From Clostridia bacterium (lineage in GTDB: Bacteria > Bacillota > Clostridia > Oscillospirales > CAG-272): a DNA stretch of 42,545 nucleotides. Both the position numbers and the translations under genes were made by a program. The notes beneath the pieces were generated by a model, which was not told where the DNA came from, made no database searches, and worked only from the letters and a program-made list of their open reading frames with translations. Location of the stretch: positions 1 to 42,545 of the forward strand of contig JAFVTO010000195.1 of NCBI GenBank assembly GCA_017503165.1, read 5' to 3'. This document shows positions 3,211 to 19,580 of the stretch, in pieces; position 1 is the stretch's first letter, and each line of letters begins with the position of its first letter.

Positions 3211-4611
3211 CTACTCTTCCTTGCTCTCCGGCTTCGGGGCGAACATATCCTTTATCCTTATAGCCGAAAACAGGTTTTTTACGGGGTGAAGCTCTATATC
3301 CTTAAAAGCACTCAGGTGGCGGTCAGCAAGCTTCTTGGAGTTATGCTCCGGGAGCACCAATCTTCCAAAGCCGAGCCGAGCTACCTCGTTCACTCGCTGC
3401 TCAACCGCCGAAACAGAACGGCATTCCCCGGAAAGACCGATCTCTCCTATAGCTATAAGATTATCCGGCAACGCCCGGTCCAGAATTCCCGAAACCAGCG
3501 CAAGCGCCACGGCAAGATCTGCGGCAGGCTCGTCAAGCTGCAATCCCCCGGTAACGTTAATGTAAATATCGTTTTGTGAAAAATGCAAGCCGAGCCTCTT
3601 TTCAAGAACGGCAAGCAGCATACACAGACGGTTGTAATCGAAGCCGTTTGCGGAGCGCTTAGGAGAGGGGAAAACGGTAGGGCTGACCAATGCCTGTATC
3701 TCGGTAATCAACGGACGCGAGCCCTCCATAACACATACGGCGCAGCTTCCGGAAACGTTCTTGGGACGTTCGCGCAAAAGCGCCTCAGATGGGTTTGGGA
3801 CCTGGCAAAGACCGGCCTCGGTCATTTCAAAAACACCGATCTCATTAGTCGAGCCGTATCTGTTTTTCACCGCTCTGATTATTCTGTAGGCATGCTGACG
3901 CTCACCCTCGAAATACAGCACCGCATCCACCATGTGCTCAAGCACCTTAGGGCCTGCAATACCGCCCTCCTTATTGACGTGTCCCACAAGTATTACGGAA
4001 AAGCCCTCGCTTTTCGCCTTGTTGATAAACCGCATAGAGCATTCACGCACCTGCGTCACACTTCCCGTGGCGCTCTGTACGTCAGCGGAATACACCGTCT
4101 GTATCGAGTCAACTATAACAATGCTCGGCGTCACCTCATCTATTTCGGCAAGGATATTCTCGATCTGCGTTTCGTTGAGAACGTAGAGCTTTTCGGCGCG
4201 CACTCCAAGACGTTTGGCGCGAAGCTTGAGCTGCCCCCCGGACTCTTCACCGGAAACGTAAAGCACGGTTTCGTCGTTCCCCACCGCTCCGCAAAGCTGC
4301 ATAAGCAGAGTAGACTTGCCGATACCCGGCTCGCCCGAGATCAGAACCGCCGAGCCGCTGACCAATCCCCCGCCGAGAACGCGGTCAAACTCGCTCATTC
4401 CGCTTCCGATACGCAGATAATCAGGTATCTCCAGCTCATCAAGCGCCGCGCTTCTGTTTTCTCTTTTCAAGGTAGCGGCGGTAAACGTGGAGTCGCTTTT
4501 CTTCGCCACACATTCCTCCAGTGTATTGTAGCTTCCGCAACTTGGGCACCTGCCGTACCACTTAGAGCTTCTGTATCCGCATTCGTTACATTCAAAATAG
4601 GTTTTTCCCAT
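3211..4611 (-). CDS. radA: DNA repair protein RadA/Sms
   Basis: N-terminal C4 zinc finger (CNECG...CPSCG), GEPGIGKST Walker A, KNRYG motif, Lon-like C-terminal domain. Confidence 0.97.
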   Translation of the reverse strand: MGKTYFECNECGYRSSKWYGRCPSCGSYNTLEECVAKKSDSTFTAATLKRENRSAALDELEIPDYLRIGSGMSEFDRVLGGGLVSGSAVLISGEPGIGKSTLLMQLCGAVGNDETVLYVSGEESGGQLKLRAKRLGVRAEKLYVLNETQIENILAEIDEVTPSIVIVDSIQTVYSADVQSATGSVTQVRECSMRFINKAKSEGFSVILVGHVNKEGGIAGPKVLEHMVDAVLYFEGERQHAYRIIRAVKNRYGSTNEIGVFEMTEAGLCQVPNPSEALLRERPKNVSGSCAVCVMEGSRPLITEIQALVSPTVFPSPKRSANGFDYNRLCMLLAVLEKRLGLHFSQNDIYINVTGGLQLDEPAADLAVALALVSGILDRALPDNLIAIGEIGLSGECRSVSAVEQRVNEVARLGFGRLVLPEHNSKKLADRHLSAFKDIELHPVKNLFSAIRIKDMFAPKPESKEE

Positions 4612-4667
4612 ATCAAAACAATCCTTTTATGACTTTTCCAAGCCGGATATCTGTCAGTATACCTCTT

Positions 4668-5135
4668 TTACAGTATAAGCTCCATTCCGACCTTCTGAGG
4701 AACCAGCCCCATTCTTTTATAAAATTCCATTGCGGAGGGATTGCAGCTCCAGACGTTAAGGGTAAGATTATAGCAACCCATATCTCTTGCCAGCCTCAAG
4801 GCTGCGCCGTAGAGCTCGCTGCCGACATGCTTTCCGCGCAGCTTCTCGTCAACGCAAAGGTCATCTATATACAGTGTCTTTATATCGGTCAGAAGCTGAC
4901 TTCCTATATGCTGCTGAAGTATGCAGAAACAGTACCCCTGCACCGTGTCGCTTTCATCCACAGCCACCAAGATCGGCTTGCTGCCATCCTTGATTATCTC
5001 ACAAAGCTCACCGTCACTGTATTTCCGTCCCTTTTTGAAAAGATCCGGCCTTCCAAGGTGATGCACCAAATTGACCTGGGAGAGCAGCTCCCCTATCCGA
5101 GGTATGTCCTTTTCCAATGCACATCTTACTTGCAC
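4668..5135 (-). CDS. GNAT family N-acetyltransferase
   Basis: LYIDDLCVDEKLRGKHVG acetyl-CoA motif and NPSAMEFYKRMG; the GTG at 5135 follows an AAGGAAG RBS (ORF track starts at 5165). Confidence 0.9.
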   Translation of the reverse strand: MQVRCALEKDIPRIGELLSQVNLVHHLGRPDLFKKGRKYSDGELCEIIKDGSKPILVAVDESDTVQGYCFCILQQHIGSQLLTDIKTLYIDDLCVDEKLRGKHVGSELYGAALRLARDMGCYNLTLNVWSCNPSAMEFYKRMGLVPQKVGMELIL

Positions 5136-5188
5136 TCTGAATACTTCCTTTCCGGCTGAAAACACTTTTTATGTTACAGACTAACCGT

Positions 5189-5217
5189 ATTATACTCCCG
5201 CCAAAAGACTTTGTCAA
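5189..5217 (-). promoter_or_regulatory. Consensus sigma-A promoter for GNAT-radA
   Basis: Perfect TTGACA-17 bp-TATAAT on the minus strand. Confidence 0.8.
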
Positions 5218-5258
5218 TATAAAAAGTGAATATCACAGGCAATTTCCCCTATATGATA

Positions 5259-5287
5259 TTGACAAGTCGCCTTTCCAGGGGTATAAT
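5259..5287 (+). promoter_or_regulatory. Consensus sigma-A promoter for the kinase-HD / RNA ligase unit
   Basis: Perfect TTGACA-17 bp-TATAAT. Confidence 0.8.
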
Positions 5288-5414
5288 TTTATCAAAGATG
5301 ATTTCGCATAAAATTTTCCGTGATTATCAAAAGGAATTAAGGTATAATAGCATTGCAAGCCGGGGCGAACGTGCCACCCGTGAGCTATAACCATAACTGA
5401 AAGGAACCGGAAAA

Positions 5415-6356
5415 ATGACCTCCATGCTACCTGAGCTGATAATGCTCGTAGGCATTCCCGCCTGCGGCAAAAGCACACTTGCAGCTCAATATGAAAAAAA
5501 CGGCTATACAGTGCTCTCATCCGATAAAATAAGAAACGAACTGGCGCAGGGTGAGGATTACGGAAAAATGACCTCCAAGGAATACCGCGAGCTGAATGTC
5601 CGTGTATTCGAAGCGATCAAGAAAAAAGCAAGCACACTGATCAAACAAAAAAGGAGTGTGGTAGTGGACTCCACGGCAATAAGCAGAAAAAAGAGGATCG
5701 GCTTTCTCAGATATATCGGAAACGCGTCATATCAAAAGACCTGCGTTCTTGTAATAACCCCCGTAGAGGTATGTATGGAGCGGAACTCCAAGAGGCAGGG
5801 AAACGCAAGAGTTCCCCATGAGGCAATCGACAAAATGCTGCGCTCCTTTGAATGCCCCGCGTATGTCGAGGGGTGGGATAAAATAGAAACGGTGGCGTAT
5901 AACGGCGCATACAGCTTCCCATTTAATGAGGCGGCAGATTTTCCGCAGGACAATCCGTACCATACTCTCACGTTAGGCGGGCACATGGACGCGGCAGTGG
6001 AATACTGCATTCAGCAAAATTATCCGGAGATTATCCGACACGTTGCCGCGTACCACGACGTAGGAAAGCTGTATACCAAGCAATTCCGCAACTATAAGGG
6101 GGAGCCGACCGAGAGCGCCCATTTCTACGGACACGAAAGCTACAGCGCATATCTTTACCTGACGGAAATGCTGTGCGGCAAAACAGTAAGCGACCGGGAA
6201 AGGGAGCAAATACTGTATTGCGCTCTGCTGATAAACTGCCATATGCGTCCGATGTTCCGTCGCGAGGGCTCTTATGAGGAGGATGTCGCTTTATTCGGCG
6301 AAAGGTTCATGGATGATCTGATGATGCTACACTCGGCGGACAGGGCAGCGCACTGA
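5415..6356 (+). CDS. P-loop polynucleotide kinase (AAA_33-like) fused to a C-terminal HD phosphohydrolase domain
   Basis: LVGIPACGKST P-loop, SSD.IR, VVVDST, ERNSKR lid; then QDNPYH...H, AAYHDVGK (HD), HFYGHE, INCHM, HSAD. Confidence 0.85.
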   Translation: MTSMLPELIMLVGIPACGKSTLAAQYEKNGYTVLSSDKIRNELAQGEDYGKMTSKEYRELNVRVFEAIKKKASTLIKQKRSVVVDSTAISRKKRIGFLRYIGNASYQKTCVLVITPVEVCMERNSKRQGNARVPHEAIDKMLRSFECPAYVEGWDKIETVAYNGAYSFPFNEAADFPQDNPYHTLTLGGHMDAAVEYCIQQNYPEIIRHVAAYHDVGKLYTKQFRNYKGEPTESAHFYGHESYSAYLYLTEMLCGKTVSDREREQILYCALLINCHMRPMFRREGSYEEDVALFGERFMDDLMMLHSADRAAH

Positions 6357-6447
6357 AAAGGAAGATTTCCGACACAAACAAAAAAAACGGTTAAATATCA
6401 AACTCGCGGCAAAAAACCGAGAATAAAAATAGAAAGGCATACTTACC

Positions 6448-7632
6448 ATGAATACCAATTCTATACTTTGTAAGTTTATATCCGATCACCCCAACGACTG
6501 GGAAGAGATATTGGAAAATGAATACGATCTGAGAATAAAGAAGGATGGAAACTACGCCATCTTCAATTATTCCATATTGGGCAACTTCTATGATCCGATA
6601 GTCCAGGAGGCTCGCGGCATAATCCTTGATTACGTGAATTTAGAGGTAGTCTGCTGGCCGTTCAGGAAATTCGGAAACCATACCGAGGGATATGTGGATA
6701 CTATAGATTGGAAGAGCGCGCGCGTGCTTGAAAAGGTAGACGGCTCAATAGTGAAGCTGTGGTATGACCGGGCAGCCCGGAAGTGGCAGTTCTCCACAAA
6801 CGGAATGATACGCGCCGAGGAAGCCCGGGCAGATGAGATATCTTCTCAGTCGTATATGGACGTAATAAGAAGCGCGGACAACTTCTGTAATATCCCCTTC
6901 GAGGAGCTGGATAAGGACACCACCTATATCTTTGAATTGGTAAGCCCACAGACAAGAGTAGTCATAAAATACGATACCGCCAGCCTGTACCATCTGGGAA
7001 CAAGAAATAATATAACCGGAATGGAAAGCGAAACCGACATAGGAATAAAAAAGCCCAAGTCTTACTCACTGGGCTCGATCGACGACTGTATAAATGCATC
7101 CGCCGAGCTGAACCGTAACGAAAGCGGAATGCAGGCGGAGGAGATAACCGCGGAGGGATTTGTGGTGGTGGATAAGGACTGGCACCGCATCAAGATAAAA
7201 TCCCCGGACTATATAATAAACCACCATTTGTCCAGCGTAAAATCCATTTCAAAATTCGATTGCGTACATCTTCTCATAAATGCTTCAAGCGACATAAACA
7301 CTATGTGCGACAGGTGCGAGGAGCTTATTCCCATATTCAAATACTATGACTTCAAGCTTTCAGAGCTGTATGTGCTTGCGGACAAAATGGCAATAATAGC
7401 AAGACAGTTTTATGAGGAATACAGCCATGAGCGGAAGGCAGTAGCGAATATAATAGTCAAGCACCGCCTGTCGGGAATAGGCTTCAAGGCGTTGGATACA
7501 GAGCTTAAAGGACGGGAGATACTCCTCGGTTTGCCTACCGAAAAGATATGTAAGCTCATCCCCGATTACCAACCGGAGGACCTCAGCGACCTTATCAAAT
7601 CCCATAATACCGCCAAGGAAAAGAAGAATTAA
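6448..7632 (+). CDS. T4 Rnl1/RnlA-like ATP-dependent RNA ligase
   Basis: EARG, PFRKFGN, motif I EKVDGS (adenylylated Lys), YIFELVSP (III), EGFVV (IV), RIKIKS..Y (V), plus a C-terminal extension. Confidence 0.87.
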   Translation: MNTNSILCKFISDHPNDWEEILENEYDLRIKKDGNYAIFNYSILGNFYDPIVQEARGIILDYVNLEVVCWPFRKFGNHTEGYVDTIDWKSARVLEKVDGSIVKLWYDRAARKWQFSTNGMIRAEEARADEISSQSYMDVIRSADNFCNIPFEELDKDTTYIFELVSPQTRVVIKYDTASLYHLGTRNNITGMESETDIGIKKPKSYSLGSIDDCINASAELNRNESGMQAEEITAEGFVVVDKDWHRIKIKSPDYIINHHLSSVKSISKFDCVHLLINASSDINTMCDRCEELIPIFKYYDFKLSELYVLADKMAIIARQFYEEYSHERKAVANIIVKHRLSGIGFKALDTELKGREILLGLPTEKICKLIPDYQPEDLSDLIKSHNTAKEKKN

Positions 7633-7669
7633 CAAAAAACTATCGAAAAGGGATAGATAAATGTAATAT

Positions 7670-7732
7670 ACACCCCCTTAAAGCAGACGCTTGAAAAAAG
7701 CAAAAGTTTTCAAGACGGCTTTAAGGGGGTGT
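7670..7732. terminator. Long stem-loop after the RNA ligase
   Basis: ACACCCCCTTAAAGC/GCTTTAAGGGGGTGT 15-bp stem with inner CTTGAAAA/TTTTCAAG, followed by a T run. Confidence 0.7.
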
Positions 7733-8003
7733 TTTTATAACCCAATTTACACTTGGATAGGTGAGATTTTGAACAGACCAAAGGAATACATACATAACTT
7801 TCGTCACAGTCACGCGACGAAAAATCTCCCCCTGCTATGCATAGGGGGAGAAAGAGGAAGCTTGTTAAATCAGCAAAAGCTTTTCTTATGCTGTCTACCT
7901 GACATCGGGCACATTATTCGCTTATATGCCAACACGGTACCTTCTTGTTCTTAAAGTTAAGTTTAAGACATAAACATATATAATCCTAAACCCAATCACG
8001 GTT

Positions 8004-9413
8004 TCACTTCTTCAATTTCTTCATAATATTTTCCATCAGCAGGTTGCTTATCTGCTTCAATTCTTTGAAAAGCAGGATAAAAATAATTAAGCAACATAGC
8101 CCGGAATACAAAAACTCTCTGGTATACGAGTTGGTGGCTACATAAATCTGGATTCCAAGCGTAAAATAACAAAAGATATAAAGCTTCCAGTTAATTGAAA
8201 GCGACATAATCTTTCTACTATGGAGTATTCTGCTTAAACAAATCGACGTTTGTGCGCATACTACAGATATGCCTGCTCCAATAATTCCTAAACGGGGAAT
8301 CAGCAAACAATTTAGTGTAATGTTTATCACAGCACCTATTCCCGTAGACACAACCAAAAACTTAGTATTATATGATGCGGTATAAATAGACCCAAAAAAC
8401 TCCGAATATGCGTGCATAGCTGTAGAGAACAATAGTAACGGAACAAATTGCCATGCTTGGAAAAAGTCTTTTGAAAACATAATATAAGCTATTGGTTTAT
8501 TAAAAACAAGCATACATGACAGAATCAAAATAATGATAGTTGACAGCTTTGCAAAAGCATCCGAAAAAAAGCCCTTTGAATCATCCGACCCAAAATCATC
8601 AACGCAATTTACTTTCCAGGCTCCTCCAAAAATGCCGGTCATTGTGGTCATTATATGTGGGATCTTATTCGCTACCGAGAACAACCCCGTAGCTGATGTA
8701 CCGATAAATGCGGTCAAGAAAAATTTACTCGCGGCATCAGCAAGCCACCAGCTTGCACTATTGGGGATCATAGGTAACGAATACGCCAACATCTTTTTTT
8801 GTAATTCCTTATTAGTTGCCCGGAATATAAGCCCATATCTATAAATTTTTGCCGCCAAAAACATATAGAGCACTGAAACTGCAGAGCCTATGATATGAGA
8901 AATCAAGTAACCCTGAATTCCCATCTTCATCGGAATCAGAAAAAGAATCGCAGATATAACGGAAATAAATGTCTGTACAATACCTCCTACAGCAAATACC
9001 TTCGTTTTATCAATTCCTCTTACAAAGTAAGAAATCGCATGCTGAATGCTATACGTTACAAAATACAGAACTACAAACCAATAGTAATCCTTTAAAGGCG
9101 TAAAGAAAATAATGGGGGATAAGCAAAAGAAAAGCAACAATCCCGCGAAAGTTATTCTGACACCTATCGTATATACTTCCCTGGGATCGTTTCCCTTTTC
9201 CAATGCAAAGCGCATCATAGCTTCGCAAATAATAAACGAGAAAAAAGGAAACAACAGCGTTGTTGTTGTTGATATCAGATCAGCTATACCGTACTGGTCT
9301 GTTGTAAGAATTGCTGTATAAAAAGGAACAAAGATAAATGTCAATAGCTTGCTGCCGAAGCTTCCTATAGTCATCAACAAAGCATCTTTGCCAAATTTCT
9401 TATAGCCTGCCAT
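8004..9413 (-). CDS. wzx: Polysaccharide flippase (Wzx/PST family)
   Basis: Multi-TM protein with GSKLLTFIFVPFYTAILTTDQYG and YSLPMIPN..SWW; last gene of a glycosyltransferase cluster. Confidence 0.9.
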   Translation of the reverse strand: MAGYKKFGKDALLMTIGSFGSKLLTFIFVPFYTAILTTDQYGIADLISTTTTLLFPFFSFIICEAMMRFALEKGNDPREVYTIGVRITFAGLLLFFCLSPIIFFTPLKDYYWFVVLYFVTYSIQHAISYFVRGIDKTKVFAVGGIVQTFISVISAILFLIPMKMGIQGYLISHIIGSAVSVLYMFLAAKIYRYGLIFRATNKELQKKMLAYSLPMIPNSASWWLADAASKFFLTAFIGTSATGLFSVANKIPHIMTTMTGIFGGAWKVNCVDDFGSDDSKGFFSDAFAKLSTIIILILSCMLVFNKPIAYIMFSKDFFQAWQFVPLLLFSTAMHAYSEFFGSIYTASYNTKFLVVSTGIGAVINITLNCLLIPRLGIIGAGISVVCAQTSICLSRILHSRKIMSLSINWKLYIFCYFTLGIQIYVATNSYTREFLYSGLCCLIIFILLFKELKQISNLLMENIMKKLKK

Positions 9414-9442
9414 TCATTTCCTCACCAATCCTTCTATATCCC

Positions 9443-9878
9443 TTATAGTCTAAACACTCTCTTGATCATGTTCTTCCATGCCGCTTTTCTATATGCCTTA
9501 TATCCCGAACTGTGGAGGCATGCATAATGAAGTCCGTGTTCCTTAAAATCCGCGCCGAAACTATCATGAGAAAGTGTTTTCGCGCGACTGATCTCAAACA
9601 TTCTATTGTGCCTTAAAGCTACATCAATCTCAGCATCACCAATAACAAAATTTGACGTATCAATTTTCCTTAACAGCTCTTGGCCTTTATTGGTTTTTTC
9701 GAAAATAAGTGAGACGCCATTTTTGTTATATGGCTGCGTTCCCGGCTTTGCCCCCTGCATTTTCGTCATTATCAACAAGTATTGCTTCCGCAAGAACCGA
9801 GGCCGCCCCACCCGAAGCCGATTTCTTTAATATCTGATCATCTTTATAATAGCCATATTTAACCTGTACATTTTCAAA
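9443..9878 (-). pseudogene. Remnant of an FrhB/FdhB-like (F420 hydrogenase beta subunit-like) polysaccharide-cluster gene
   Basis: N-terminal-type motif KKSASGGAASVLAEAIL in one frame and C-terminal-type motif GVSLIFEKTNKGQELL in another, within about 430 bp. Confidence 0.6.
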
Positions 9879-11090
9879 TTATCCATTCAAGCTTATGTCT
9901 ATATAACCGCCAGCTTCTTCAATTGAGTGAGGAATATCTTCCCCTCGACAGCCTGATAGTGCCTTTTCCAAGTAATCAGCAGAAGCTCTGCGCAATTCCG
10001 ATAATTTGCCATACACAGACTTATAGTCAATTTCATTTTCGATCGAAAACTCAGGAGCTCCCCACAATGCACTGTTTAACCCAAGCTTGTACAGCAGTTC
10101 AATCATACGCCTTCCGCGAGTGGTGTGTGGAACAGTAATAAACTTTTTCTTGTACAGGATAGAAAAAACAGTTCCGTGAAAAGAGTTTGTAACCACAAAT
10201 TCTGCATTCTTAATATATGACAGAAAACGGTCCGGGGCGTAATCTGAAGCGTTTATTATATTCATGCCGTTAAGCTTAACCGTCTCTGGAGTGCCGTTAA
10301 TAACACGGTATCCACACATATTTCCAACTTGTTGAACAGCCAACCGGATATCCTCAGAGGTTTCAAGTCCGTACACAAATACATACGGCTCTTTCTCCGA
10401 AACATCGCTTTCAATATTCAAGTAGTCGTCAGCATCCAAAAGAAGCGTTGGATCAACGCAGATATGAACATCCCGATCAATAGTTTCAAGTAGCTCCGGC
10501 GTACTTTCACGCAAGGAGACAGCATCTAAGTGCTCACATAATATGTTGATCTTCCTGCATTCATCTTCGGACAGCTTTTTCCCTATACTTACTGCATATG
10601 CAATTTTTCTGATTTCATTTGACCCAAAATTCAAAAAATAAGCTTCGTCAAAATCATGATCCAATAAATCCGGATTCCATAATTGATCGCTTCCCGTAAT
10701 ATAGGCATCCATTTTGGGTGGATGCTTTTGCAGTGCCTTTATCGACTCATATTTAGTTGTAAGATTCAGATAATTTGAAGTAAACCTGTTAAACAATCGG
10801 GAATTAGTGCGATGTGTACCCAGAAGATTCCAATACATACAACGAACAAAACTCTTAGCAAACACCAAGCTCTTTCGGCGTATAGAAGCCCGTTTATGCA
10901 TATTATAATACCACAACGAATACCTGATGGGGTTTTTCCACGGACTATAACGCACTGTATGGTATTTGGGACGGTAATCAATGATCTGAACATCGTGTCC
11001 TTGATTACTCAAATATTTTTGTAACGCATAGCTTTGGAGAACAGCCCCTTGATTATTTACAAAATGAAACGTAATTATTCCAATCTTCAT
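9879..11090 (-). CDS. Polysaccharide pyruvyl transferase family protein
   Basis: MKIGIITFH..N.GAVLQSYAL, ITGSDQLWN, SLRE, VDPTLLL, VVTNSFHGTVFSI. Confidence 0.92.
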   Translation of the reverse strand: MKIGIITFHFVNNQGAVLQSYALQKYLSNQGHDVQIIDYRPKYHTVRYSPWKNPIRYSLWYYNMHKRASIRRKSLVFAKSFVRCMYWNLLGTHRTNSRLFNRFTSNYLNLTTKYESIKALQKHPPKMDAYITGSDQLWNPDLLDHDFDEAYFLNFGSNEIRKIAYAVSIGKKLSEDECRKINILCEHLDAVSLRESTPELLETIDRDVHICVDPTLLLDADDYLNIESDVSEKEPYVFVYGLETSEDIRLAVQQVGNMCGYRVINGTPETVKLNGMNIINASDYAPDRFLSYIKNAEFVVTNSFHGTVFSILYKKKFITVPHTTRGRRMIELLYKLGLNSALWGAPEFSIENEIDYKSVYGKLSELRRASADYLEKALSGCRGEDIPHSIEEAGGYIDISLNG

Positions 11091-11113
11091 CCACTAAAAC
11101 CCCTTCTTAGTTT

Positions 11114-12382
11114 TTATTGAAAATCACCGTTCCTCTTCACAGCCGGAACTGCTGTTATGAACGCAACACAAACAAAATAGAAAATGTAATATGATGCATC
11201 ATACAACGGGTTGCCTGTCACCCCATATAAGAGGAAGAAAATTTGGTAAAACAACGCAAACAAAGCAATTTTCTTTTTATACGTGTCAGTTGTTTTCTTT
11301 TTCAGATAAGACAGTGTTTTTGCAAAAACAATTGCAAATAAGATGAAGAAAACAATTGCACCCACTAATCCGGTTTCACACAATAACTGCAAATAAATAT
11401 TGTGAACATCATAATTCTTTCCATAGAATTTCAATTTGTAAAATTGCTTCCAACCAATCCCCAAAACCGGTTCATCCCGGAATTTTTGTAAAGCAATTCT
11501 CCAAAACTCAACTCTACCGGTAGTCACGTCAACATCTGAATCTCCCAATGAACTCAACGTATCAAACAGTTGATTAATTAACGTTCCTTCAACAAAAAAC
11601 GAAATAATCCAAAGGCACAGAAATATGCTGCATCCTAAGAGCGACATTCCCAGAAAACGTTTCAGCCTTGAAGCCTTCCCCTGGCTTAAATATACAGAAA
11701 AGTAATAGGCTATCAGCAATGCTATCAGGCAGAAGCCAAAGTGAGCACGCTTCCCTGAAAGATACAGCCCGATAATAGACAAAAACAGGAAAATGAATGT
11801 TCTCTGCTTCAAATACGGCTTGTTATCTCTGTATAATATGAATCGGTTAGCCATACCCAAAACCATAAACCCTGCAAAATGTGCATTCTGGCATGTAAAA
11901 CCTATGTTGGATGCACCGCTGATTACAGAATCGTAAAGTCTTGAATAATAATCAATTCCGCTAAATACAGGAAGGAAAATATTTACATATATCCCCGGCA
12001 ACATCCAGCATATAAGCATGCCAATTATTTGAATACATGAAAAAAAATTGATAAGACACGATAGCGTTACAATAAAATCCTCTTTAACTCCGATAGACAC
12101 GATAACAAACAATGCGCTATAGAAAAGCAAATAAGTAATCGATGCACGCGAAGCAATCATTACGAACAAAATCAAAAGCATGATAACCGATAATGAATTT
12201 ATCCGAATTTTATTCTTTAGCAATGCCAACAGCATTAAACCCGCGATCAAGACTCCGTATGCTCTTTCAGTAAGGGTATTTTCAAACATCCAATACCCCC
12301 ACACAGAACAATAAGAAAATGCAAAAAAAAGACACAGTAACACCAGACATTTCAAGCTATCAAACTTTACTATTTTTCTCAT
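11114..12382 (-). CDS. wzy: O-antigen polymerase/ligase family membrane protein (Wzy_C)
   Basis: About 10-12 hydrophobic segments, LSGKR, TGRVEFW, P.LGIG, VHNIYLQLLCETGLVG. Confidence 0.8.
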   Translation of the reverse strand: MRKIVKFDSLKCLVLLCLFFAFSYCSVWGYWMFENTLTERAYGVLIAGLMLLALLKNKIRINSLSVIMLLILFVMIASRASITYLLFYSALFVIVSIGVKEDFIVTLSCLINFFSCIQIIGMLICWMLPGIYVNIFLPVFSGIDYYSRLYDSVISGASNIGFTCQNAHFAGFMVLGMANRFILYRDNKPYLKQRTFIFLFLSIIGLYLSGKRAHFGFCLIALLIAYYFSVYLSQGKASRLKRFLGMSLLGCSIFLCLWIISFFVEGTLINQLFDTLSSLGDSDVDVTTGRVEFWRIALQKFRDEPVLGIGWKQFYKLKFYGKNYDVHNIYLQLLCETGLVGAIVFFILFAIVFAKTLSYLKKKTTDTYKKKIALFALFYQIFFLLYGVTGNPLYDASYYIFYFVCVAFITAVPAVKRNGDFQ

Positions 12383-13350
12383 CTTGGGCTCATCCCTATC
12401 CTCTTACGCAACATCGTTGTACATGTAGGCGATATTTTAAACAATAACCACTTTAATTTTTGCTTAGTAGACAATGACTTATGCAAACCTTTACTCAAAC
12501 ATAAACGCAACCAGCTACGGTAATTTTCTTTGATTTTCTTTTTATATTCCCGCTTATCTTCGCCATGATATGTTAATTCCAACTTGTTATAAGCCAGAAT
12601 AGCAGAATTAACACCCATAATAGACTGAACAGCGGCAAATTCGACTTGCCTCTTTAACATAAAATCATAGATATAATCGTTGGCTTTTAATATATCCATG
12701 GTTCAGTGTGTAAATGGAGAATTACACAGACTTGTTGGATTGGTAAAATAATTATAATACGCATTTCCCACCGTACATGTTCTTTGGGCATTATAATATA
12801 ACTGTGTCAAAATGCATTGATCTTCACTGAGATACATCATGGGAAACTCAACACCGTCAAAAAGAGCTTTCTTAAAAACCTTATTACACAAATAGTTTGT
12901 AACATTTTTTTGGTAAATGTAATGCTTCAAGCAATTAATCCCCTCTTGCCGGTCACATTGTAATTTATGAATTACTTTGTTATTATCCCATACGGTGTAA
13001 TAACCGTATTCGATTATGTCTATTTCCTGTTCGCACAAGGGAACAATCTCTTCAAACAGACCTTCTTCCAATGAATCGTCCGCATCTACAAAAGAAATAT
13101 AGTCTCCCGTAGCGAGAGCTAAACCCGCTTGACGGGCAATTGACGGGCCTTGATTCTCCTGCAACTTATAAATAATCCTTTGATCCTCTTCAGCCAATTT
13201 TGTACACATAGTACCGGAATTATCCTTCGATCCGTCGTTAATCAGAACTATTTCCAAATCCCGGTAATTCTGATTGATAATCGAACGAACACAACGCTCA
13301 ATATACATTTCTGCATTGTACACAGGAATAATTATACTGAACTTTATCAT
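12379..13350 (-). pseudogene. GT2 glycosyltransferase interrupted by an in-frame TGA (12703-12705)
   Basis: SIIIPVYN, INDGSKD and FVDADD motifs; ORFs 12703..13350 and 12379..12699 are in the same frame, joined as CAC TGA ACC ATG. Confidence 0.75.
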
Positions 13351-13351
13351 T

Positions 13352-14149
13352 CTACCTTCCTCGATTCTTGCGAATTATTTTCTTAGCTGTCGCTACTATT
13401 GCTTTCATTGTGCCATGGTATGCTTTTTTAGCTTTATAGTATGAAATTACAGAAGCAATTTTGTATGGGTATTTTTTTACATACTTCATCCGCAATTGAA
13501 AGTAGTATTTCTGTTCCTCTGTGCACCAAGATGCACCGTAATGATGTATTGAAACAGTATTTTCCGTTAACTGCATCTCAAATGTGATTGGATCCTTAGG
13601 ACAAAAATATTCTGTAGGATATATCATGAATCCATCTATCTCTTGCGCAATATTTCGATTAATAAACCCGTGCTCTTTGAAGTATTTTGTGGTTCGCTCA
13701 CATACAGTATACACATTAAGCTCCCCATTCACTAAAATGAAACAATCATTCTCATATGAATTCAGCATCCACTTACAGTATTCATTACCGCTCTCGCACC
13801 CCATTATCAAACCGGTGTTAATACTATTAGCATTTTCCAATGCGAGGAAAGGATGCTCAAGTAATCCTTCTAACGGTTTTATGATTTCAACATCTGTGTC
13901 CAAATAAATTCCACCGAACTTATCTAATATTGCATGACGCACATAATCGGAGACAAACGCCCACTTTTTCGCATCATATGCTTCTCGCACATACTGACAC
14001 GAGTTACCTATATCAAAATTGTCCTCATTCCACTCTATTATCTCAAAATCAGGGCAATATTTCCTCCAGCTCTCAATACAATCAAGGATTAATTTACTTT
14101 TTTCCCCTTTTCCAAACCAACAGTAGTGAATTGTTCTCGGAATCATCAC
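13352..14149 (-). CDS. GT32 / Gly_transf_sug glycosyltransferase
   Basis: IPRTIHYCWFG, WAFVSDYVR, GGIYLDTDVE (DxD), IHHYGASW. Confidence 0.92.
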   Translation of the reverse strand: MMIPRTIHYCWFGKGEKSKLILDCIESWRKYCPDFEIIEWNEDNFDIGNSCQYVREAYDAKKWAFVSDYVRHAILDKFGGIYLDTDVEIIKPLEGLLEHPFLALENANSINTGLIMGCESGNEYCKWMLNSYENDCFILVNGELNVYTVCERTTKYFKEHGFINRNIAQEIDGFMIYPTEYFCPKDPITFEMQLTENTVSIHHYGASWCTEEQKYYFQLRMKYVKKYPYKIASVISYYKAKKAYHGTMKAIVATAKKIIRKNRGR

Positions 14150-15012
14150 TTTAAATCTCCTGTATTCTCAAATGCTTTTGGGAATTTCATCTGCTCATAG
14201 ATTTTTGCGTCAACCAACAACCTGTAATAAAGGTGGTATAGAAAAGAGTATATGAACCCCTCTTTCCCATTCAGACAATTACCTTTCAGAAAATACGCAT
14301 AACAGAAATACGCCCAGCATCGCCAAAACATGGGAGCCTTATAATACTTAGTCTTTTTACTTCTCTTCTTGCTTATCTTAGAATTTGAAGCATTGAATTC
14401 TGTATCCGGAAATCTATCTTCCATATAATCCTGCATTTCACGGGTAGCATACCAGTTCAATTTCTTCACATAGGTATTCAAATCTTTGAAATCGTAATGC
14501 AGAAATTTTTCTTCAATAGAGATAGATTCTCCACAGGATAACACAGTATGTTCATCCATCTTTCGATCTTCGATGCGACCGATTCCGGTCTTAAACACCA
14601 TCAATTTTCTTTTTCTTCCACCGCCATGAGTAAGTTTTCTTCCCATGAAAAAGAGCCATGCTTCTAACGTAAATCCGTTGACATCGTCATTTTCGTGTTC
14701 TGAACATTCTTTTTCCAATCTGCTGCAAAGCTCAGGTGTAAACCTCTCGTCAGCATCCAAACGAAGTGTCCACTTGGTTGATATACCCGTATTATCTATA
14801 GCCCAGTTAAACTGACGGGCATAGTTTTCAAAAGGATGTGAATATACGTCGACAAAATCCAACGACGATGCGATTTCGACTGTTTTATCGTCACTACCAC
14901 TGTCAACTACCACTGCCCTCTTCGCAAAACCTTCTATTGATTTCAAACATTCTTCAATATTCTGTTCTTCATTTTTAGTCAGAATAATTGCTGTCAAATC
15001 AGTCATTTTCAC
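14146..15012 (-). CDS. GT2 family glycosyltransferase
   Basis: IILTKNEE, VDSGSDDKT, LRLDADE, MDEH; true start may be the ATG at 15006. Confidence 0.9.
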   Translation of the reverse strand: MKMTDLTAIILTKNEEQNIEECLKSIEGFAKRAVVVDSGSDDKTVEIASSLDFVDVYSHPFENYARQFNWAIDNTGISTKWTLRLDADERFTPELCSRLEKECSEHENDDVNGFTLEAWLFFMGRKLTHGGGRKRKLMVFKTGIGRIEDRKMDEHTVLSCGESISIEEKFLHYDFKDLNTYVKKLNWYATREMQDYMEDRFPDTEFNASNSKISKKRSKKTKYYKAPMFWRCWAYFCYAYFLKGNCLNGKEGFIYSFLYHLYYRLLVDAKIYEQMKFPKAFENTGDLK

Positions 15013-15154
15013 AACCCCTTATATTACGTTTCCTTTTCCCCATTTCCCTTTTATAATTCATTGCGAGATGCACTACTAAAGAAATGAGATCAGCTAACAA
15101 AAGAGTAATCCCTACTTTGCCTAAAAAGAAGGCGTGAGACATTCTTCTATACGA

Positions 15155-15448
15155 TTACTTTTTATCATCGGTAGAAACATTCTTAACAGAAAGTCCTTCC
15201 AGCTTTCCGACATACATCGCAATCCAACCAATAAGAATTGCCAACGAACCGATGACGATCACCACAGGATAATACCGTTTATACAAGAAAACAGATATCG
15301 TTTCTCCAAGTGTGCCACCGATAATTATTGCAAAGATAAACGGAATAATCGGAAGAAATCCTGCAAAAAAAGAGATCGACATCATTATTCCATAGATTTT
15401 ATTGAGTACATTAAATATCTTCTGACGCATTTTCGTTACCTTTCTCAT
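15155..15448 (-). CDS. Small hydrophobic membrane protein (possible partner of the TRAP-like permease)
   Basis: 97 aa, 2-3 hydrophobic segments, start overlaps the upstream stop. Confidence 0.65.
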   Translation of the reverse strand: MRKVTKMRQKIFNVLNKIYGIMMSISFFAGFLPIIPFIFAIIIGGTLGETISVFLYKRYYPVVIVIGSLAILIGWIAMYVGKLEGLSVKNVSTDDKK

Positions 15449-16806
15449 CTAATCAGTCCCCATATGGGAAGCAGTTCAAGCAAAATAACTACTGACAATA
15501 AATAGTGTAGCAAAACCCATATCATACAGTTCATAAGCGTCGGTTTCAATTTCGACTGCGCAATGCCCATACCGGTGTATACACAGGCACAGTAAGGGGG
15601 GGTTACCCCATGCATAGCTCCACAGATACACGGAAGCATCGCGGCAACAAGCATCGGATTGCTTCCCGCCGCTGCCATAATGGAAATTATGATTCCACCA
15701 AATATCTTAACCTGTGTAGAACCGGGCAAAAGCATACCAAGAATCGCCATAAAAAGCGGAATCAGGAAACTCAGTGTCACATGGCTCATGTTAAATGAAC
15801 TTATAAATTCACCGATCGCAACTTCCACGTTGAGGTCCTCAAAAACGTTACTTACAAAATAAGCAAACAACACCAGCACCGAGGTAGGAACAACCTTGAG
15901 CATTCCGTCCCGAATATATCCGTACATAGCGAAAGGAGTCATCTTATGCGCTGTTTCTTTTCCGGACAATACAATACCAAATATCACTATCAAAGATGGT
16001 ATAAACAAAAGAATACTGTTATTGAATGCACTTGCTCCGGCTCCAAGACGCGAAACAAAAAATGCTTCAAATTTACTTGTCAAAAAGAACGGAAGGAATA
16101 CAATAATTGGGAGAAAAATCGCTTTCCAACCCTTCTTGAGAGAATCTTTGAAACCAGGAATGTCCTCTTTTTTCATAGGCTCAACTTTGTAGTAACAACA
16201 CATGAAATACAAAGTTATTATACGCTGAAGAATAAACCAAAGCGCAACTCCCCAAAGCAGCATCCAATACTGTGACATCGTGTAGGTATGTGGATAAAGT
16301 GCGTCCAATGCTGCAAATGCAATACCGATCATACCCGCAGGAGGAATCATATTTCCCATTGTACTGGAATGCGCCTCGACATTTGCAGCCAAATGCGGCG
16401 GGAAACCGGAACGTATCATAGCAGGTATGGTGAAAACACCGGTTGTTGCTACATTGCCGGGACCGGAGCCGGAAAGAGAACCCATATAAGAGCTTCCGAT
16501 AATAGAAACAAAACCTGCCCCACCGCGCAATCTGCCGAAAATCGAAAGAATAATCGCAATACAATCGTCAATAACACTTGTTTTTGACAAGAGGTGCGCT
16601 GATATTACGAATACAAATATCACGTACAGGGAAGTCTGTTTTAAGGCATCCCAAATGTATGTGCCGATATTTGCCCATGTACCGCTTACAAGAACCAGTA
16701 CTACAAAAGCAACAAGCATACATTCATACAAGGGACGTTTCAATATGGTAAAACCGATGATGGCTACCACGAAAACAACCGCTAGGTAGATAATTTCAAT
16801 TGGCAT
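15445..16806 (-). CDS. TRAP transporter large permease (DctM-like)
   Basis: About 12 TM segments; GRLRGG, GSLSGSGPGN, IPAMIRSGFP, MGNMIPP, VTPP motifs. Confidence 0.8.
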   Translation of the reverse strand: MPIEIIYLAVVFVVAIIGFTILKRPLYECMLVAFVVLVLVSGTWANIGTYIWDALKQTSLYVIFVFVISAHLLSKTSVIDDCIAIILSIFGRLRGGAGFVSIIGSSYMGSLSGSGPGNVATTGVFTIPAMIRSGFPPHLAANVEAHSSTMGNMIPPAGMIGIAFAALDALYPHTYTMSQYWMLLWGVALWFILQRIITLYFMCCYYKVEPMKKEDIPGFKDSLKKGWKAIFLPIIVFLPFFLTSKFEAFFVSRLGAGASAFNNSILLFIPSLIVIFGIVLSGKETAHKMTPFAMYGYIRDGMLKVVPTSVLVLFAYFVSNVFEDLNVEVAIGEFISSFNMSHVTLSFLIPLFMAILGMLLPGSTQVKIFGGIIISIMAAAGSNPMLVAAMLPCICGAMHGVTPPYCACVYTGMGIAQSKLKPTLMNCMIWVLLHYLLSVVILLELLPIWGLIR

Positions 16807-16856
16807 ATAGTTTTCCTTTCAAAAATCGTAAATTTCTAAGCAATCATAGAAACATA

Positions 16857-18023
16857 TTAATGCTTTCGCTTCTCCATATCCTTTTTGTAGGTCATTACAT
16901 GTTCAATTGCATAACTAAAGAATGGGATGGGATCCGCCCACGAAAAGATATAATCCTTCTGTTTGAAACAGTAAAACCAATTTGGCTTTGCCTTCCATCT
17001 CTCGGGATTTTTAATAAACCACATTATGTCAGTGTGGAAATAGCGAAGAGCCAGGTTCTTGGGAATCGGTTTAGTCATAGGCTTCAGTTCGACGCCGTAT
17101 GCCAAATCAAGCATATTCTTCACAGGCTCCGTTCCCGCCCATTCGCAAATCTTTATACTTGCCGGAATTCGTCCATTGATTTCCATGACCTTCGGGGTAT
17201 TGTCGCGCGGATCCATGATAAAGCCGATATGTCCGAAGCTTCTCCATTCCAGAGCTTGCAACAGTCTGTTCGAGCTATCAATCATCACCGGGTGATCAAT
17301 GGTTCGAATATAGCAGCCTGGACCGCCATCAATCGGAAACCATCTGCGGGATTCCACAACTAAAGTTGCTTGGGGTTTATGGTTTTCGTCCATCATAACA
17401 TATCCGCCGTATTGATACCCCCCCTTAGGGATCAATTCTTGAATAACGTATTCTTCGGGAATGATAGTACCGTCAATCAAGTATTTATCAAGCTCTTCGC
17501 GGTTCATGATCCGCTTAAATCCTGCTCCGCCACTTCCCTTACGCGGTTTAGCACAAATCGGAAAATCTACCTTTTCAAGGAACTCATCCATTGTTTCATC
17601 ATCCATTTTGGTGATAGGACAAGGAATGTTGTTTTCCATACAAACCTTCATCGTTTGCTGCTTGTCATAAGCCTTCATAAACGAATCTCGTGAAGAAGCA
17701 ATGATTTTCAGATCAGGATATCGATCTTGAATAATGCCATCAATACAAATATCTGTTGCACGCTCGAGAATAGGGAAAAGAATATCATACCCGTTTTCCA
17801 ATTCTTTCTCAATTGCCTGTCTATAGATTGTATTGTTTTCTCTGATTCCGGGTACAACAACTCGTTTGGACGGATATCTCGATGTATAGCCAACATCAAG
17901 TTTCGACTCGCATATAGTAGTGATCTTACAGCCCAGTTTTTTCAACTGATGAAGCAAACTGGGAACTTGACGCCCATACCCATCCAATAAGAGAACTTTC
18001 TTTCCAGTATAATTCATAATCAC
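16857..18023 (-). CDS. ATP-grasp carboxylate-amine ligase family protein
   Basis: DKQQT, FPICAKPRKGSGGAG, VIQELIP, VMEINGR. Confidence 0.85.
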   Translation of the reverse strand: MIMNYTGKKVLLLDGYGRQVPSLLHQLKKLGCKITTICESKLDVGYTSRYPSKRVVVPGIRENNTIYRQAIEKELENGYDILFPILERATDICIDGIIQDRYPDLKIIASSRDSFMKAYDKQQTMKVCMENNIPCPITKMDDETMDEFLEKVDFPICAKPRKGSGGAGFKRIMNREELDKYLIDGTIIPEEYVIQELIPKGGYQYGGYVMMDENHKPQATLVVESRRWFPIDGGPGCYIRTIDHPVMIDSSNRLLQALEWRSFGHIGFIMDPRDNTPKVMEINGRIPASIKICEWAGTEPVKNMLDLAYGVELKPMTKPIPKNLALRYFHTDIMWFIKNPERWKAKPNWFYCFKQKDYIFSWADPIPFFSYAIEHVMTYKKDMEKRKH

Positions 18024-18880
18024 TCGCTCCTAAGCGGATGAACCGCTTTACTCAATAAATATGTCTTTTCATTCTTACCAAGGATTCCCTTGATAGCCGC
18101 ATAACCACAGTTGACCAACCACCGCGGTAGCCTGATCACGATCCGCGCCCGGCCTTCTGCTTTTTCAGCCTTTATATAATCAGGCGTAAACATTCTATCG
18201 GTATCTTTGATAATCCGAATATCATTCTTGGGTTCAGTCTTACACCAATCAACCATAGCGGCAACAGCATTCCGGATGCTCAGAATCTCATACTCTGTGC
18301 CTTTACCTATCTGATATGCGATATTCGGATACTTCAGATAGTAACGCTTCTGAATATCGCGTTTGATCTCCTCCGTGTAAACAGGACTAAAACGGAAGAT
18401 GCCGTAATGCTTGAGTTTCTTGCACTCTTCCTCTGCCATAGCCTTACTCTTAGCATACAAGCTCACAGGGTGAACCTCAGTATCGCCATTGACCGTATTC
18501 TTCCCATCATAAAACCCAAACACATCAACTGTACTGATTTGCAGAACAGGGCGATCCCCGGCGGTCTCAAATACGTTCCTGGCGCATTCAACATTAAGAT
18601 GGTAATAATCATCCCAAGAATACTTTTTCCCATTAACAGTATGAGCTAAAGCTGCCAAATGTATTATACGGTCAATTCTGTTATTTTCAATAATATCAAG
18701 AAGAGCTTTTCTGTCCGAAAGATCTACCTTATAATGGCTGTATCCATCCGACACCACTGTACCATCTCTGAAATCTACACCGTATACGGTAAAACCGGCA
18801 TTTAACAATCCATTTACGGTTTCTGAACCGATCATACCGGATGCGCCTGTTATCAAAACTGTTATTTTTCCGTCATTCAT
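18020..18880 (-). CDS. NAD-dependent epimerase/dehydratase family protein
   Basis: LITGASGMIG, IIHLAALAH, YAKSK (YxxxK). Confidence 0.85.
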   Translation of the reverse strand: MNDGKITVLITGASGMIGSETVNGLLNAGFTVYGVDFRDGTVVSDGYSHYKVDLSDRKALLDIIENNRIDRIIHLAALAHTVNGKKYSWDDYYHLNVECARNVFETAGDRPVLQISTVDVFGFYDGKNTVNGDTEVHPVSLYAKSKAMAEEECKKLKHYGIFRFSPVYTEEIKRDIQKRYYLKYPNIAYQIGKGTEYEILSIRNAVAAMVDWCKTEPKNDIRIIKDTDRMFTPDYIKAEKAEGRARIVIRLPRWLVNCGYAAIKGILGKNEKTYLLSKAVHPLRSE

Positions 18881-19578: not shown

Positions 19579-19580
19579 TG

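Follow-up and report, generated by a model that had tools for sequence, protein, structure and literature searches.

Why should an otherwise ordinary stretch of Clostridia chromosome carry a polynucleotide kinase fused to a phosphoesterase domain immediately before an RNA ligase, and what would such a pair do for the cell? The question arose for a 42,545-nt window of chromosomal DNA from Clostridia bacterium (the whole of the stretch analysed, contig JAFVTO010000195.1 of assembly GCA_017503165.1), in which a first-pass annotation had described a two-gene RNA repair module. The listing of open reading frames (ORFs) placed two same-strand ORFs exactly where that annotation had them (5415..6356 and 6448..7632, both on the forward strand), and with the domains, the promoter and the terminator all recovered, the locus is confirmed as real. 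Our analysis indicates that the two genes very likely form a self-contained, ATP-dependent operon for healing and sealing broken RNA. The earlier reading was essentially right, and its novelty was somewhat overrated, since the same pair of kinase-HD protein and Rnl1-type ligase is already annotated in Tsamsa-like phages. The coding parts of the locus are the following.

5415 to 6356, forward strand: Pnk-HD end-healing gene, 313 amino acids (aa), a P-loop polynucleotide 5'-kinase with a C-terminal HD phosphoesterase, by homology
5415 to 5909, forward strand: kinase domain, residues 1-165, with the P-loop G13-x4-G18-K19-S20 and with S35-S36-D37, R40, D85, T87, R94 and R127
5910 to 6353, forward strand: putative HD phosphoesterase domain of the CCA-adding-enzyme (HDIG-like) type, residues 166-313, with H183/H190, H214-D215-x-G-K218, H236-x3-H240, H276 and D309
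6448 to 7632, forward strand: gene of an Rnl1-family ATP-dependent RNA ligase, 394 aa, from PHROG, NCBIfam and T4 Rnl1 matches
6448 to 7203, forward strand: nucleotidyltransferase domain of the ligase, residues 1-252, with K96-V-D98-G99-S100 (motif I), F162-E163 (III), E236-G237 (IV), K249-x-K251 (V), R56, K74 and F75
7204 to 7629, forward strand: C-terminal domain of the ligase, residues 253-394, all-helical, the counterpart of the C-terminal domain in T4 Rnl1

The N-terminal part of the first protein matched Pfam AAA_33 (3.9e-27, residues 8-148), the PHROG family phrog_505 'polynucleotide kinase' (1.4e-20) and, over residues 8-140, the NCBIfam family bacter_Pnkp TIGR04075 (2.3e-12), the last for the kinase part only and at 45.9 bits against a cut-off of 750. 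In an alignment of 35 homologues, G13, G18 and K19 of the P-loop, S35-S36-D37, R40, D85, T87, R94 and R127 were invariant, and the P-loop and the SSD..R stretch aligned with the same elements of the Clostridium thermocellum Pnkp kinase. By analogy with the T4 and Clostridium enzymes, D37 is presumably the general base and the arginines phosphate binders. An AlphaFold2 (AF2) model of the Pnk-HD protein, built on the 35 homologues, reached a predicted local distance difference test score (pLDDT) of 94.7 and a predicted template modelling score (pTM) of 0.92. Its kinase half matched the C. thermocellum Pnkp kinase (4gp6, Z 17.2, root-mean-square deviation (rmsd) 3.5, 156 aligned) and T4 Pnk (1ltq, Z 15.9, rmsd 2.2, 139 aligned), and the top Foldseek match was the kinase of mammalian PNKP. 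The kinase belongs to the polynucleotide-kinase branch.

Kinship of the C-terminal domain was visible only by profile, in the comparison with a CCA-adding enzyme, and by fold. The Pfam HD family reached only E 0.025 and 15.3 bits, short of its cut-off of 22, and the domain alone found no match among PDB sequences at E ≤ 10. We regard the HD domain as real because a set of histidines and aspartates is conserved and because profile, fold and a phage homologue agree. H190, H214-D215, K218, H236, H240, H276 and D309 were invariant or nearly so among the 35 homologues. The search of related genomes matched the C-terminal parts of two CCA-adding enzymes, in which Pfam confirmed a PolyA_pol head and an HD domain. 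When the family alignment was compared by hhalign with the HD domain of one of the two, encoded in a genome of the same genus, a probability of 96.3% was obtained (E 1.8e-9, 127 columns, 30% identity), with every HD motif in register. The HD part also matched that of the polynucleotide kinase (PNK) of phage RM378 (E 4.3e-8) and the N-terminal part of phrog_6931 (7.3e-6). By fold, residues 166-313 resembled PhnZ (4n71, Z 12.8) and residues 252-422 of 3wfo (Z 12.3, rmsd 2.2, 124 aligned, 23% identity), which bears only the database title 'tRNA processing enzyme' and is presumably a CCA- or A-adding enzyme; a Z of about 12 can be common for helical domains, and the profile result was given more weight. 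Neither a HAD family (among Pfam, NCBIfam and PHROG matches) nor a PolyA_pol (Pol-beta head) match in Pfam was found in the Pnk-HD protein. A P-loop kinase with a C-terminal HD domain, as first proposed, is thus what the family matches, conservation, profile and fold describe. According to the available part of a paper citing Yakunin 2004, the HD domain of the E. coli CCA enzyme strips 2',3'-cyclic phosphate from tRNA ends (PMC6961547); removal of cyclic phosphate is the activity that a healing enzyme needs. Because the HD domain lies under the Pfam threshold, members of the family are publicly named 'ATP-binding protein' or 'AAA family ATPase'. One relative of 402 aa, P0130, has the kinase-HD layout with about 60 extra residues inserted into its HD domain, after the first histidine motif and ahead of the HD dyad, which splits the HMM (hidden Markov model) match into 1-221 and 282-402.

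The second protein is a divergent member of the Rnl1 family and not an equivalog of T4 RnlA. It matched phrog_562 (T4 RnlA) at 3.7e-42 over residues 31-354, with the profile covered to position 352 of 377, and phmmer aligned it with T4 Rnl1 (2c5u) at 1.7e-8, pairing EKVDGS with TKEDGS, FELVSP with FEFVAP, EGFVVV with EGYVAV and IKIKS with FKIKS. In 23 ligases of linked loci, R56, K74, F75, K96, D98, G99, S100, F162, E163, E236, G237, K249 and K251 were invariant; the T4 Rnl1 counterparts of the motif III-V, arginine and lysine-phenylalanine residues are essential. The earlier description of an Rnl1-type ligase with intact catalytic motifs therefore held. The model of the ligase (pLDDT 87.4) showed a beta-rich nucleotidyltransferase domain followed by helices over residues 253-393. 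T4 Rnl1 (2c5u) ranked first in Foldseek (E 5.1e-16, 398 columns, full length, with a template modelling score of only 0.50-0.53), followed by fungal Trl1 ligase domains (6n67, E 1.8e-9) and then archaeal Rnl3; Rnl2-type and DNA ligases stood far lower in the list. A complex prediction for Pnk-HD with the ligase scored 0.00, a value that says nothing either way on binding.

The two genes are bracketed exactly by a promoter and a terminator, as the first-pass annotation had held.

5259 to 5287, forward strand: predicted sigma-70-type promoter, TTGACA-17 nt-TATAAT, with 12/12 consensus matches, 128 nt 5' of the first start codon
6357 to 6447, forward strand: A-rich intergenic spacer of 91 nt, with AGAAAGG, resembling a ribosome-binding site, ahead of the ligase start codon
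7670 to 7739, forward strand: predicted intrinsic terminator, with perfect 15-bp arms (7670-7684, 7718-7732) and an inner hairpin, followed by UUUUUAUA

The promoter scan as a whole returned 5 promoter-like sites against 6.1 expected in shuffles, so that only the 12/12 match carries weight. The terminator ends in a U run and folds with -35.7 kcal/mol (z -7.18), and none of 200 shuffles was as stable; a simple terminator scan missed it because its loop is long. No terminator-like site was found on the forward strand of the 91-nt spacer, and the intergenic gap is shorter than 30 nt in most related loci, compared to 91 nt here. The gene order is not an assembly chimera, since Logan contigs from 3 runs of 3 studies, identical to the window over 4401-6725, 4866-6785 and 4866-6781, span both the GNAT/kinase and the kinase/ligase junctions with 0 differences; one of the 3 runs may be the window's own source.

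Several further elements lie in and around the operon. A second perfect 12/12 sigma-70 consensus at 5217-5189 (reverse strand) points toward the GNAT-radA side, so that two perfect promoters stand back to back, 42 nt apart, with the forward one facing the repair operon. Between the operon terminator and the convergent flippase gene, window positions 7798-7850 contain two further hairpins, a minus-strand terminator-like site at 7823-7798 and the palindrome CTCCCCCTGC...GCATAGGGGGAG, both of which are probably terminators of the convergent gene. An exact 17-nt direct repeat, CGGAAAAATGACCTCCA, occurs at 5408-5424 and 5561-5577, 153 nt apart and in frame. Its first copy spans the annotated start codon (MTS...), and its second encodes ...KMTS..., residues 50-53; by our own arithmetic, a chance 17-mer repeat within 3 kb has a likelihood of roughly 3 in 10,000. 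The public protein P0001 begins three residues later (MLPEL...), and the true start codon of the Pnk-HD gene is for that reason uncertain.

From a scan of one genome per species we collected 44 loci with a full-length Pnk-HD relative, nearly all of them in metagenome-assembled genomes of gut or rumen Clostridia, and ligases were sought by tblastn and by searching every six-frame ORF with an HMM built from the ligase alignment. An RNA ligase adjoined the Pnk-HD gene in 33 of the 44 loci, distributed as follows.

28 of 44 loci: Rnl1-type ligase directly downstream, same strand
2 of 44 loci: Rnl1-type ligase directly upstream
2 of 44 loci: PF09414-type RNA ligase adjacent
1 of 44 loci: phrog_968 RNA ligase adjacent

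Two natural fusions join the same parts in a single chain, each continuous and with all motifs: P0180 (694 aa) in the order kinase-HD-Rnl1 and P0182 (683 aa) in the order Rnl1-kinase-HD. Together with the adjacent pairs, these fusions show that the two genes are usually linked in relatives. A search of 1.84 billion cluster representatives (50% identity) with the HD domain returned 1,134 matches at E ≤ 0.001; the stricter limit of E ≤ 1e-10 was passed by at least 492 clusters. Among the 150 matches listed, 128 are proteins of 272-339 aa with the match in the C-terminal half, a class defined by length and match position and not by a confirmed N-terminal kinase in each; 19 are shorter and 3 longer. 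Decayed copies are rare, namely the ligase of L007 (7022-8000) and the kinase-HD gene of L035 (528-1560), both of which are broken across two frames. Two loci whose neighbours are phage-like (L030:4483-5301 and L034:3623-4435) have a nucleotidyltransferase of 271-273 aa (phrog_388) directly upstream, in the ligase's place, and it may be an RlaP-like RNA-end polymerase.

The genes around the pair vary and include glycosyl hydrolases, Spo0A, a penicillin-binding protein and a Mur ligase; L005 has an integrase there, L015 a transposase and L001 Cas3, while L013 and L017 encode TIR proteins. Because the neighbours differ among loci, the module behaves as a small mobile cassette. Some related loci add TROVE or DUF2828/DUF7788 genes, the HAD 'Swiss army knife' family (HAD_SAK_2) and WYL/WCX regulators. 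DUF2828/DUF7788 was located beside the module at L016:8115-9782, L025:8427-9890 and L033:8311-9864 and near lone kinase-HD genes at L019:6009-7469 and L036:1860-3353; a weak TROVE match lies by the module at L001:4174-5862, and WYL/WCX regulators are often upstream (L019, L025, L033). Such loci look like an expanded RNA-repair or RNA-quality-control cluster. A jumbo-phage survey, in the part available, describes these companions as linked to RNA repair and mentions that HD-like domains occasionally supply the phosphatase (PMC7824862).

The family is also common in viruses. Among isolated phages, 104 records match the Pnk-HD protein, 37 of which cover at least 80% of it; the HD domain alone finds exactly 37 phage records, all from Bacillus or Lysinibacillus phages. 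At least 219 IMG/VR contigs encode a Pnk-HD relative, the best 80 at 28-39% identity, and in 20 of these 80 loci an Rnl1-type ligase lies within 5 kb on the same strand, a lower bound for viral linkage because only the Rnl1-type model was applied. Eleven of the 20 ligases are within 400 nt (8 upstream, 3 downstream) and 9 are farther away. We built a FastTree phylogeny of 125 rows (the window together with 43 loci from genomes, 79 from IMG/VR and 2 from Tsamsa-like phages), leaving out L035 and L162, which covered fewer than 250 profile positions. The window fell in a 30-row clade made up entirely of bacterial genomes (Shimodaira-Hasegawa-like support 99; 41-56% protein identity), 26 rows of which have the Rnl1-type ligase directly downstream. 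Other branches are mostly viral, and L030, L034, L036, L039 and L040 nest among viral rows, with phage-like neighbours (ERF, RecD2, RecJ, HNH, WDGH).

The distribution among close relatives is patchy. The module was found in none of the 40 related genomes searched (12 of the same genus, 12 others of the same family and 16 of the same order), where only partial matches were obtained (at most about 140 residues, E ≥ 5.6e-9); most of these genomes are more than 90% complete, and absence from an incomplete genome is not proof. Since no copy was found in these 40 genomes, the module, which belongs to a bacterial clade, appears to have been acquired horizontally, out of a family carried mostly by phages. 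The suggestion that it was captured from a phage fits its frequency on viral contigs, the position of the bacterial branch among mainly viral rows and the failure to find the module in any of the 40 relatives, but the direction of transfer is unproven, as the tree is rooted at its midpoint and has no outgroup. In same-genus genomes the GNAT gene was matched in 1 of 12, without common neighbours, and none of 11 radA regions contained the module; only G008 among the 11 has the aminotransferase, with a glycosyl hydrolase on the module's side of radA. No clean insertion boundary could be drawn from GNAT/radA synteny in these genomes, and no flanking repeats marking an insertion were found around the module.

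We infer all of the enzymatic activities from homology and conserved residues, and on this basis the following course of events can be proposed. A transesterifying ribonuclease would cut an RNA and leave one end with a 2',3'-cyclic phosphate and the other with a 5'-OH. The HD domain would open the cyclic phosphate and remove the phosphomonoester, leaving a 2',3'-diol, and the P-loop kinase would move the gamma-phosphate of an NTP onto the 5'-OH. The ligase would then adenylylate itself at Lys96 and transfer AMP to the 5'-phosphate, and through this adenylylated RNA intermediate the ends would be joined. Both genes would be read as one unit from the strong promoter and stopped by the one terminator, and the operon would let the cell recover from toxins that cut tRNA or rRNA, whether its own, a competitor's or triggered by phage. 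The preferred substrate is probably tRNA cut in a loop, by analogy; this is suggested by two features only, the Rnl1-like C-terminal domain and the CCA-enzyme-type HD domain. No Tpt1 family match was found in the genome, which is 82% complete, and this weakly favours a T4-like junction with a 2'-OH over a Trl1-like one with a 2'-phosphate. It is possible, though on balance we doubt it, that the module is a mobile 'tRNA repair immunity' cassette of two genes that gut Clostridia took from phages. In that scenario the HD domain would derive from a CCA enzyme, giving a 'headless' CCA enzyme with a kinase, and together with the Rnl1-like C-terminal domain it would make the system tRNA-specific. The cassette would protect against the tRNA-cutting toxins of competitors or aid recovery after the cell's own abortive-infection nucleases, and the fusions of Rnl1 with Pnk-HD would be independently assembled prokaryotic or phage counterparts of Trl1.

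A number of observations weigh against RNA repair by this operon. The first-pass annotation had named AAA_33, HD and RNA_lig_T4_1 as families to look for; AAA_33 was recovered and Pfam HD stayed sub-threshold, while NCBIfam TIGR02308 RNA_lig_T4_1 did match the ligase (6.8e-16, profile covered to 324 of 373) but at 58.3 bits, under the equivalog cut-off of 242.25. No Pfam family, PF09511 included, matched the window's ligase at E ≤ 1; two other ligases of that alignment, those of L039 and L044, do score as PF09511. As the ligase is far under the RnlA cut-off and lacks a Pfam match, a substrate preference cannot be transferred from T4. Eleven of the 44 genome loci showed no adjacent ligase (in one of them, L024, the contig ends 385 nt past the gene), and 60 of the best 80 viral loci had no Rnl1-type ligase within 5 kb. 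Nor is the module the only possible RNA-sealing route of its genome, which has two RtcB-family genes (G000:C57:5245-6291, reverse strand, in a 491-aa open frame, and G000:C186:23593-24648, forward strand, in a 400-aa open frame); RtcB is a second, GTP-dependent route that seals 3'-phosphate or cyclic-phosphate ends. No paper on the kinase-then-HD order was found in the literature searched, although Burroughs & Aravind 2016 may list it. Of the enzymes with related domains, Deinococcus radiodurans PNKP was assayed on DNA, according to the part of the source available (PMC1997131), and the Runella slithyformis HD-Pnk is titled a DNA/RNA end-healing enzyme in an entry of the reference list of PMC6097658. 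The ligase encoded beside the Runella enzyme, in the accessible text of that same source, adenylylates itself and sealed none of the 3'-OH/5'-PO4 substrates tried (PMC6097658), so that pairing with a ligase is no guarantee of classical sealing.

Could the pair instead serve a programmed step, in which it matures, circularises or recycles a cellular RNA, such as a Y-RNA-like partner of TROVE or tRNA halves, as housekeeping? The TROVE or DUF2828/DUF7788 genes that adjoin the module in four loci (L001, L016, L025, L033) and occur close to lone kinase-HD genes in two (L019, L036) would suit such a role, as would the circularisation of RNAs by archaeal Rnl-type ligases reported in the available part of PMC9014305. 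However, no TROVE-like gene occurs in the window, no tRNA gene or Rfam match lies near the module, and presence in 0 of 40 related genomes is unlike a housekeeping step. We consider this role improbable.

Repair of DNA ends appears less probable again. Here the kinase-HD protein would heal 5'-OH/3'-phosphate DNA ends and the ligase would seal single-stranded or nicked DNA, alongside radA, which lies 800 nt from the module on the opposite strand; the DNA assays of the Deinococcus PNKP and the title given to the Runella enzyme agree with this. Against it, the ligase matches the Rnl1 and Trl1 RNA ligases first, with DNA ligases far down the Foldseek list, and the recurrent companions elsewhere are RNA-linked (TROVE-like, HAD_SAK_2). 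The proximity to radA is not shared either: families of the radA type adjoin the module in 0 of 25 loci whose flanks were scanned (up to 2 ORFs upstream and 3 downstream each; 111 ORFs called, 70 scanned), and the radA region of 11 same-genus genomes lacks the module.

Least probable of all is an inert leftover of a phage or mobile element, kept by chance and with no host role, since the patchy distribution (0 of 40 related genomes), the mostly viral family and the integrase (L005) and transposase (L015) beside the module are set against two intact frames with all catalytic residues conserved, a perfect promoter and a strong terminator, the rarity of broken copies (ligase of L007, kinase-HD gene of L035), and a pair kept in 26 of 30 rows of the bacterial clade at 41-56% identity, which implies long purifying selection. 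RNA repair fits the ligase family, the variable neighbourhoods and the conservation better than these three alternatives.

The remainder of the window is ordinary chromosome. One flank of the operon encodes a MocA-type oxidoreductase, a class IV aminotransferase, radA and a GNAT acetyltransferase; on the other lie a long locus for exopolysaccharide, genes of sugar use and the gene of a surface protein of 3,716 aa. A Pfam scan of the 28 other ORFs in the window found no phage-type families, in agreement with the earlier remark that no phage genes are nearby, and no methyltransferase adjoining the module. There are no tRNA genes in the window, and a search of 5100-8100 against Rfam at E ≤ 1 gave 2 chance-level matches far under gathering scores and no leader RNA. 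The exopolysaccharide/capsule locus (8004-20249, reverse strand) is of lower G+C (0.34-0.40) and includes a flippase, a pyruvyl transferase, a Wzy-type polymerase, several glycosyltransferases, an ATP-grasp protein, an epimerase, an initiating sugar transferase and a PIG-L deacetylase. The 3,716-aa ORF (28542-39692, reverse strand) combines beta-helix and Chlamydia-PMP-type repeats with 4 Laminin_G_3 domains and, at its C-terminus, a GDSL lipase/acylhydrolase domain; it resembles a giant protein of the surface or adhesin type.

Repair of RNA by healing and sealing is chiefly familiar as the answer of phages to anticodon nucleases. Such repair, HD-type end healing and Rnl1 sealing are already known, and the same pair is annotated in Bacillus phages. 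What is new is the kinase-then-HD order, which is uncharacterised at the bench, the CCA-enzyme-type HD domain that escapes Pfam, and the occurrence of the pair as a tight, self-contained operon within a bacterial clade, paralleled elsewhere by single-chain fusions. In the window the system is found on a chromosome in a stand-alone version running from promoter to terminator, and the two genes have stayed side by side in a clade of gut and rumen Clostridia. If active, the operon would give the host a compact defence against toxins that cut RNA, and kinase-HD would be a fourth layout of healing enzymes beside the kinase-HAD of T4, the kinase-metallophosphoesterase of Clostridium and HD-kinase. 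Hundreds of such enzymes are probably under-annotated, considering the 492 or more clusters that match the HD domain at E ≤ 1e-10. Both enzymes are small and confidently modelled, which makes them easy bench targets and possible tools for RNA ligation.

How does the operon compare with the systems that are known? The polynucleotide kinase/3'-phosphatase of phage RM378 was reportedly described by Blondal and colleagues in 2005. Its domains are both homologous to those of the Pnk-HD protein and lie in a single 362-aa frame (kinase part 5.2e-17, HD part 4.3e-8), but in the opposite order, with HD (98084-98530) before the kinase (98618-99064). The RM378 genome also encodes an Rnl1-type ligase (E 4.5e-32 against the family of the window's ligase), which is about 7 kb from the PNK and on the other strand, whereas the window's ligase is adjacent. 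The same HD-then-kinase order is seen in phrog_6931, where the window's HD domain matches positions 61-123 and its kinase 185-337. A PNKP subfamily of 5'-kinase and 3'-HD phosphohydrolase was proposed earlier, with RM378 PNK then its sole member with 3'-phosphatase activity shown in the HD domain, and the HD domain of the Deinococcus enzyme is N-terminal, in the part of that source available (PMC1997131). The HD domain of the Runella HD-Pnk is N-terminal too, and its gene adjoins that of an ATP-dependent ligase, as described in the accessible part of PMC6097658. The reversed domain order relative to known HD-Pnk enzymes, noted at the outset, is thus supported by the RM378 frame and by these two partial descriptions. 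The window module has the kinase, the HD domain and the ligase pairing in common with the HD-Pnk enzymes, but not the domain order, and its first protein is best seen as a domain-swapped relative of HD-Pnk and not as a strict architectural member.

More distant systems share single parts. Class II CCA-adding enzymes have the HD domain in common (96.3%, E 1.8e-9; 3wfo fold, Z 12.3), but carry a Pol-beta head where the window protein has its kinase. Bacterial Pnkp-Hen1, with its kinase-metallophosphoesterase-ligase chain and Hen1, resembles the window only in the kinase part, and no methyltransferase adjoins the module. The ligase domains of fungal and plant Trl1 are the second-best fold match (6n67, E 1.8e-9), and the fusion P0182 has the Trl1 order ligase-kinase-phosphoesterase, except that an HD domain replaces the 2H phosphodiesterase. 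Trl1 relies on a cyclic phosphodiesterase of the 2H type and requires a 2'-phosphate that is later removed by Tpt1, whereas the enzyme of the window is of the HD type.

The closest parallels in logic are from phages. T4 Pnkp and Rnl1, a pathway that counters the PrrC anticodon nuclease, follow the same scheme, and T4 Pnkp has the same order of N-terminal kinase and C-terminal phosphoesterase. The T4 kinase fold was matched (Z 15.9), and T4 Rnl1 is the best solved relative of the ligase, C-terminal domain included. However, the T4 phosphoesterase is a HAD (DxDxT) acylphosphatase while that of the window appears to be of the metal-dependent HD type, the ligases are only about 18-21% identical, and the host of the window's genes is a bacterial chromosome and not a phage. 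Tsamsa-like Bacillus phages (Joanripponvirinae) have the same two architectures at full length (99% coverage, about 30% identity), also encoded side by side. In the two phages compared, the ligase precedes the kinase-HD gene and the ends overlap, whereas in the window the order is the reverse and a gap of 91 nt separates the genes. The phage pair lies in the replication/repair arm, where a DNA ligase is encoded nearby and a nucleotidyltransferase a few genes upstream. In the part of the source available it is listed as a polynucleotide kinase and an RNA/tRNA ligase and read as T4-like RNA repair (PMC9703825).

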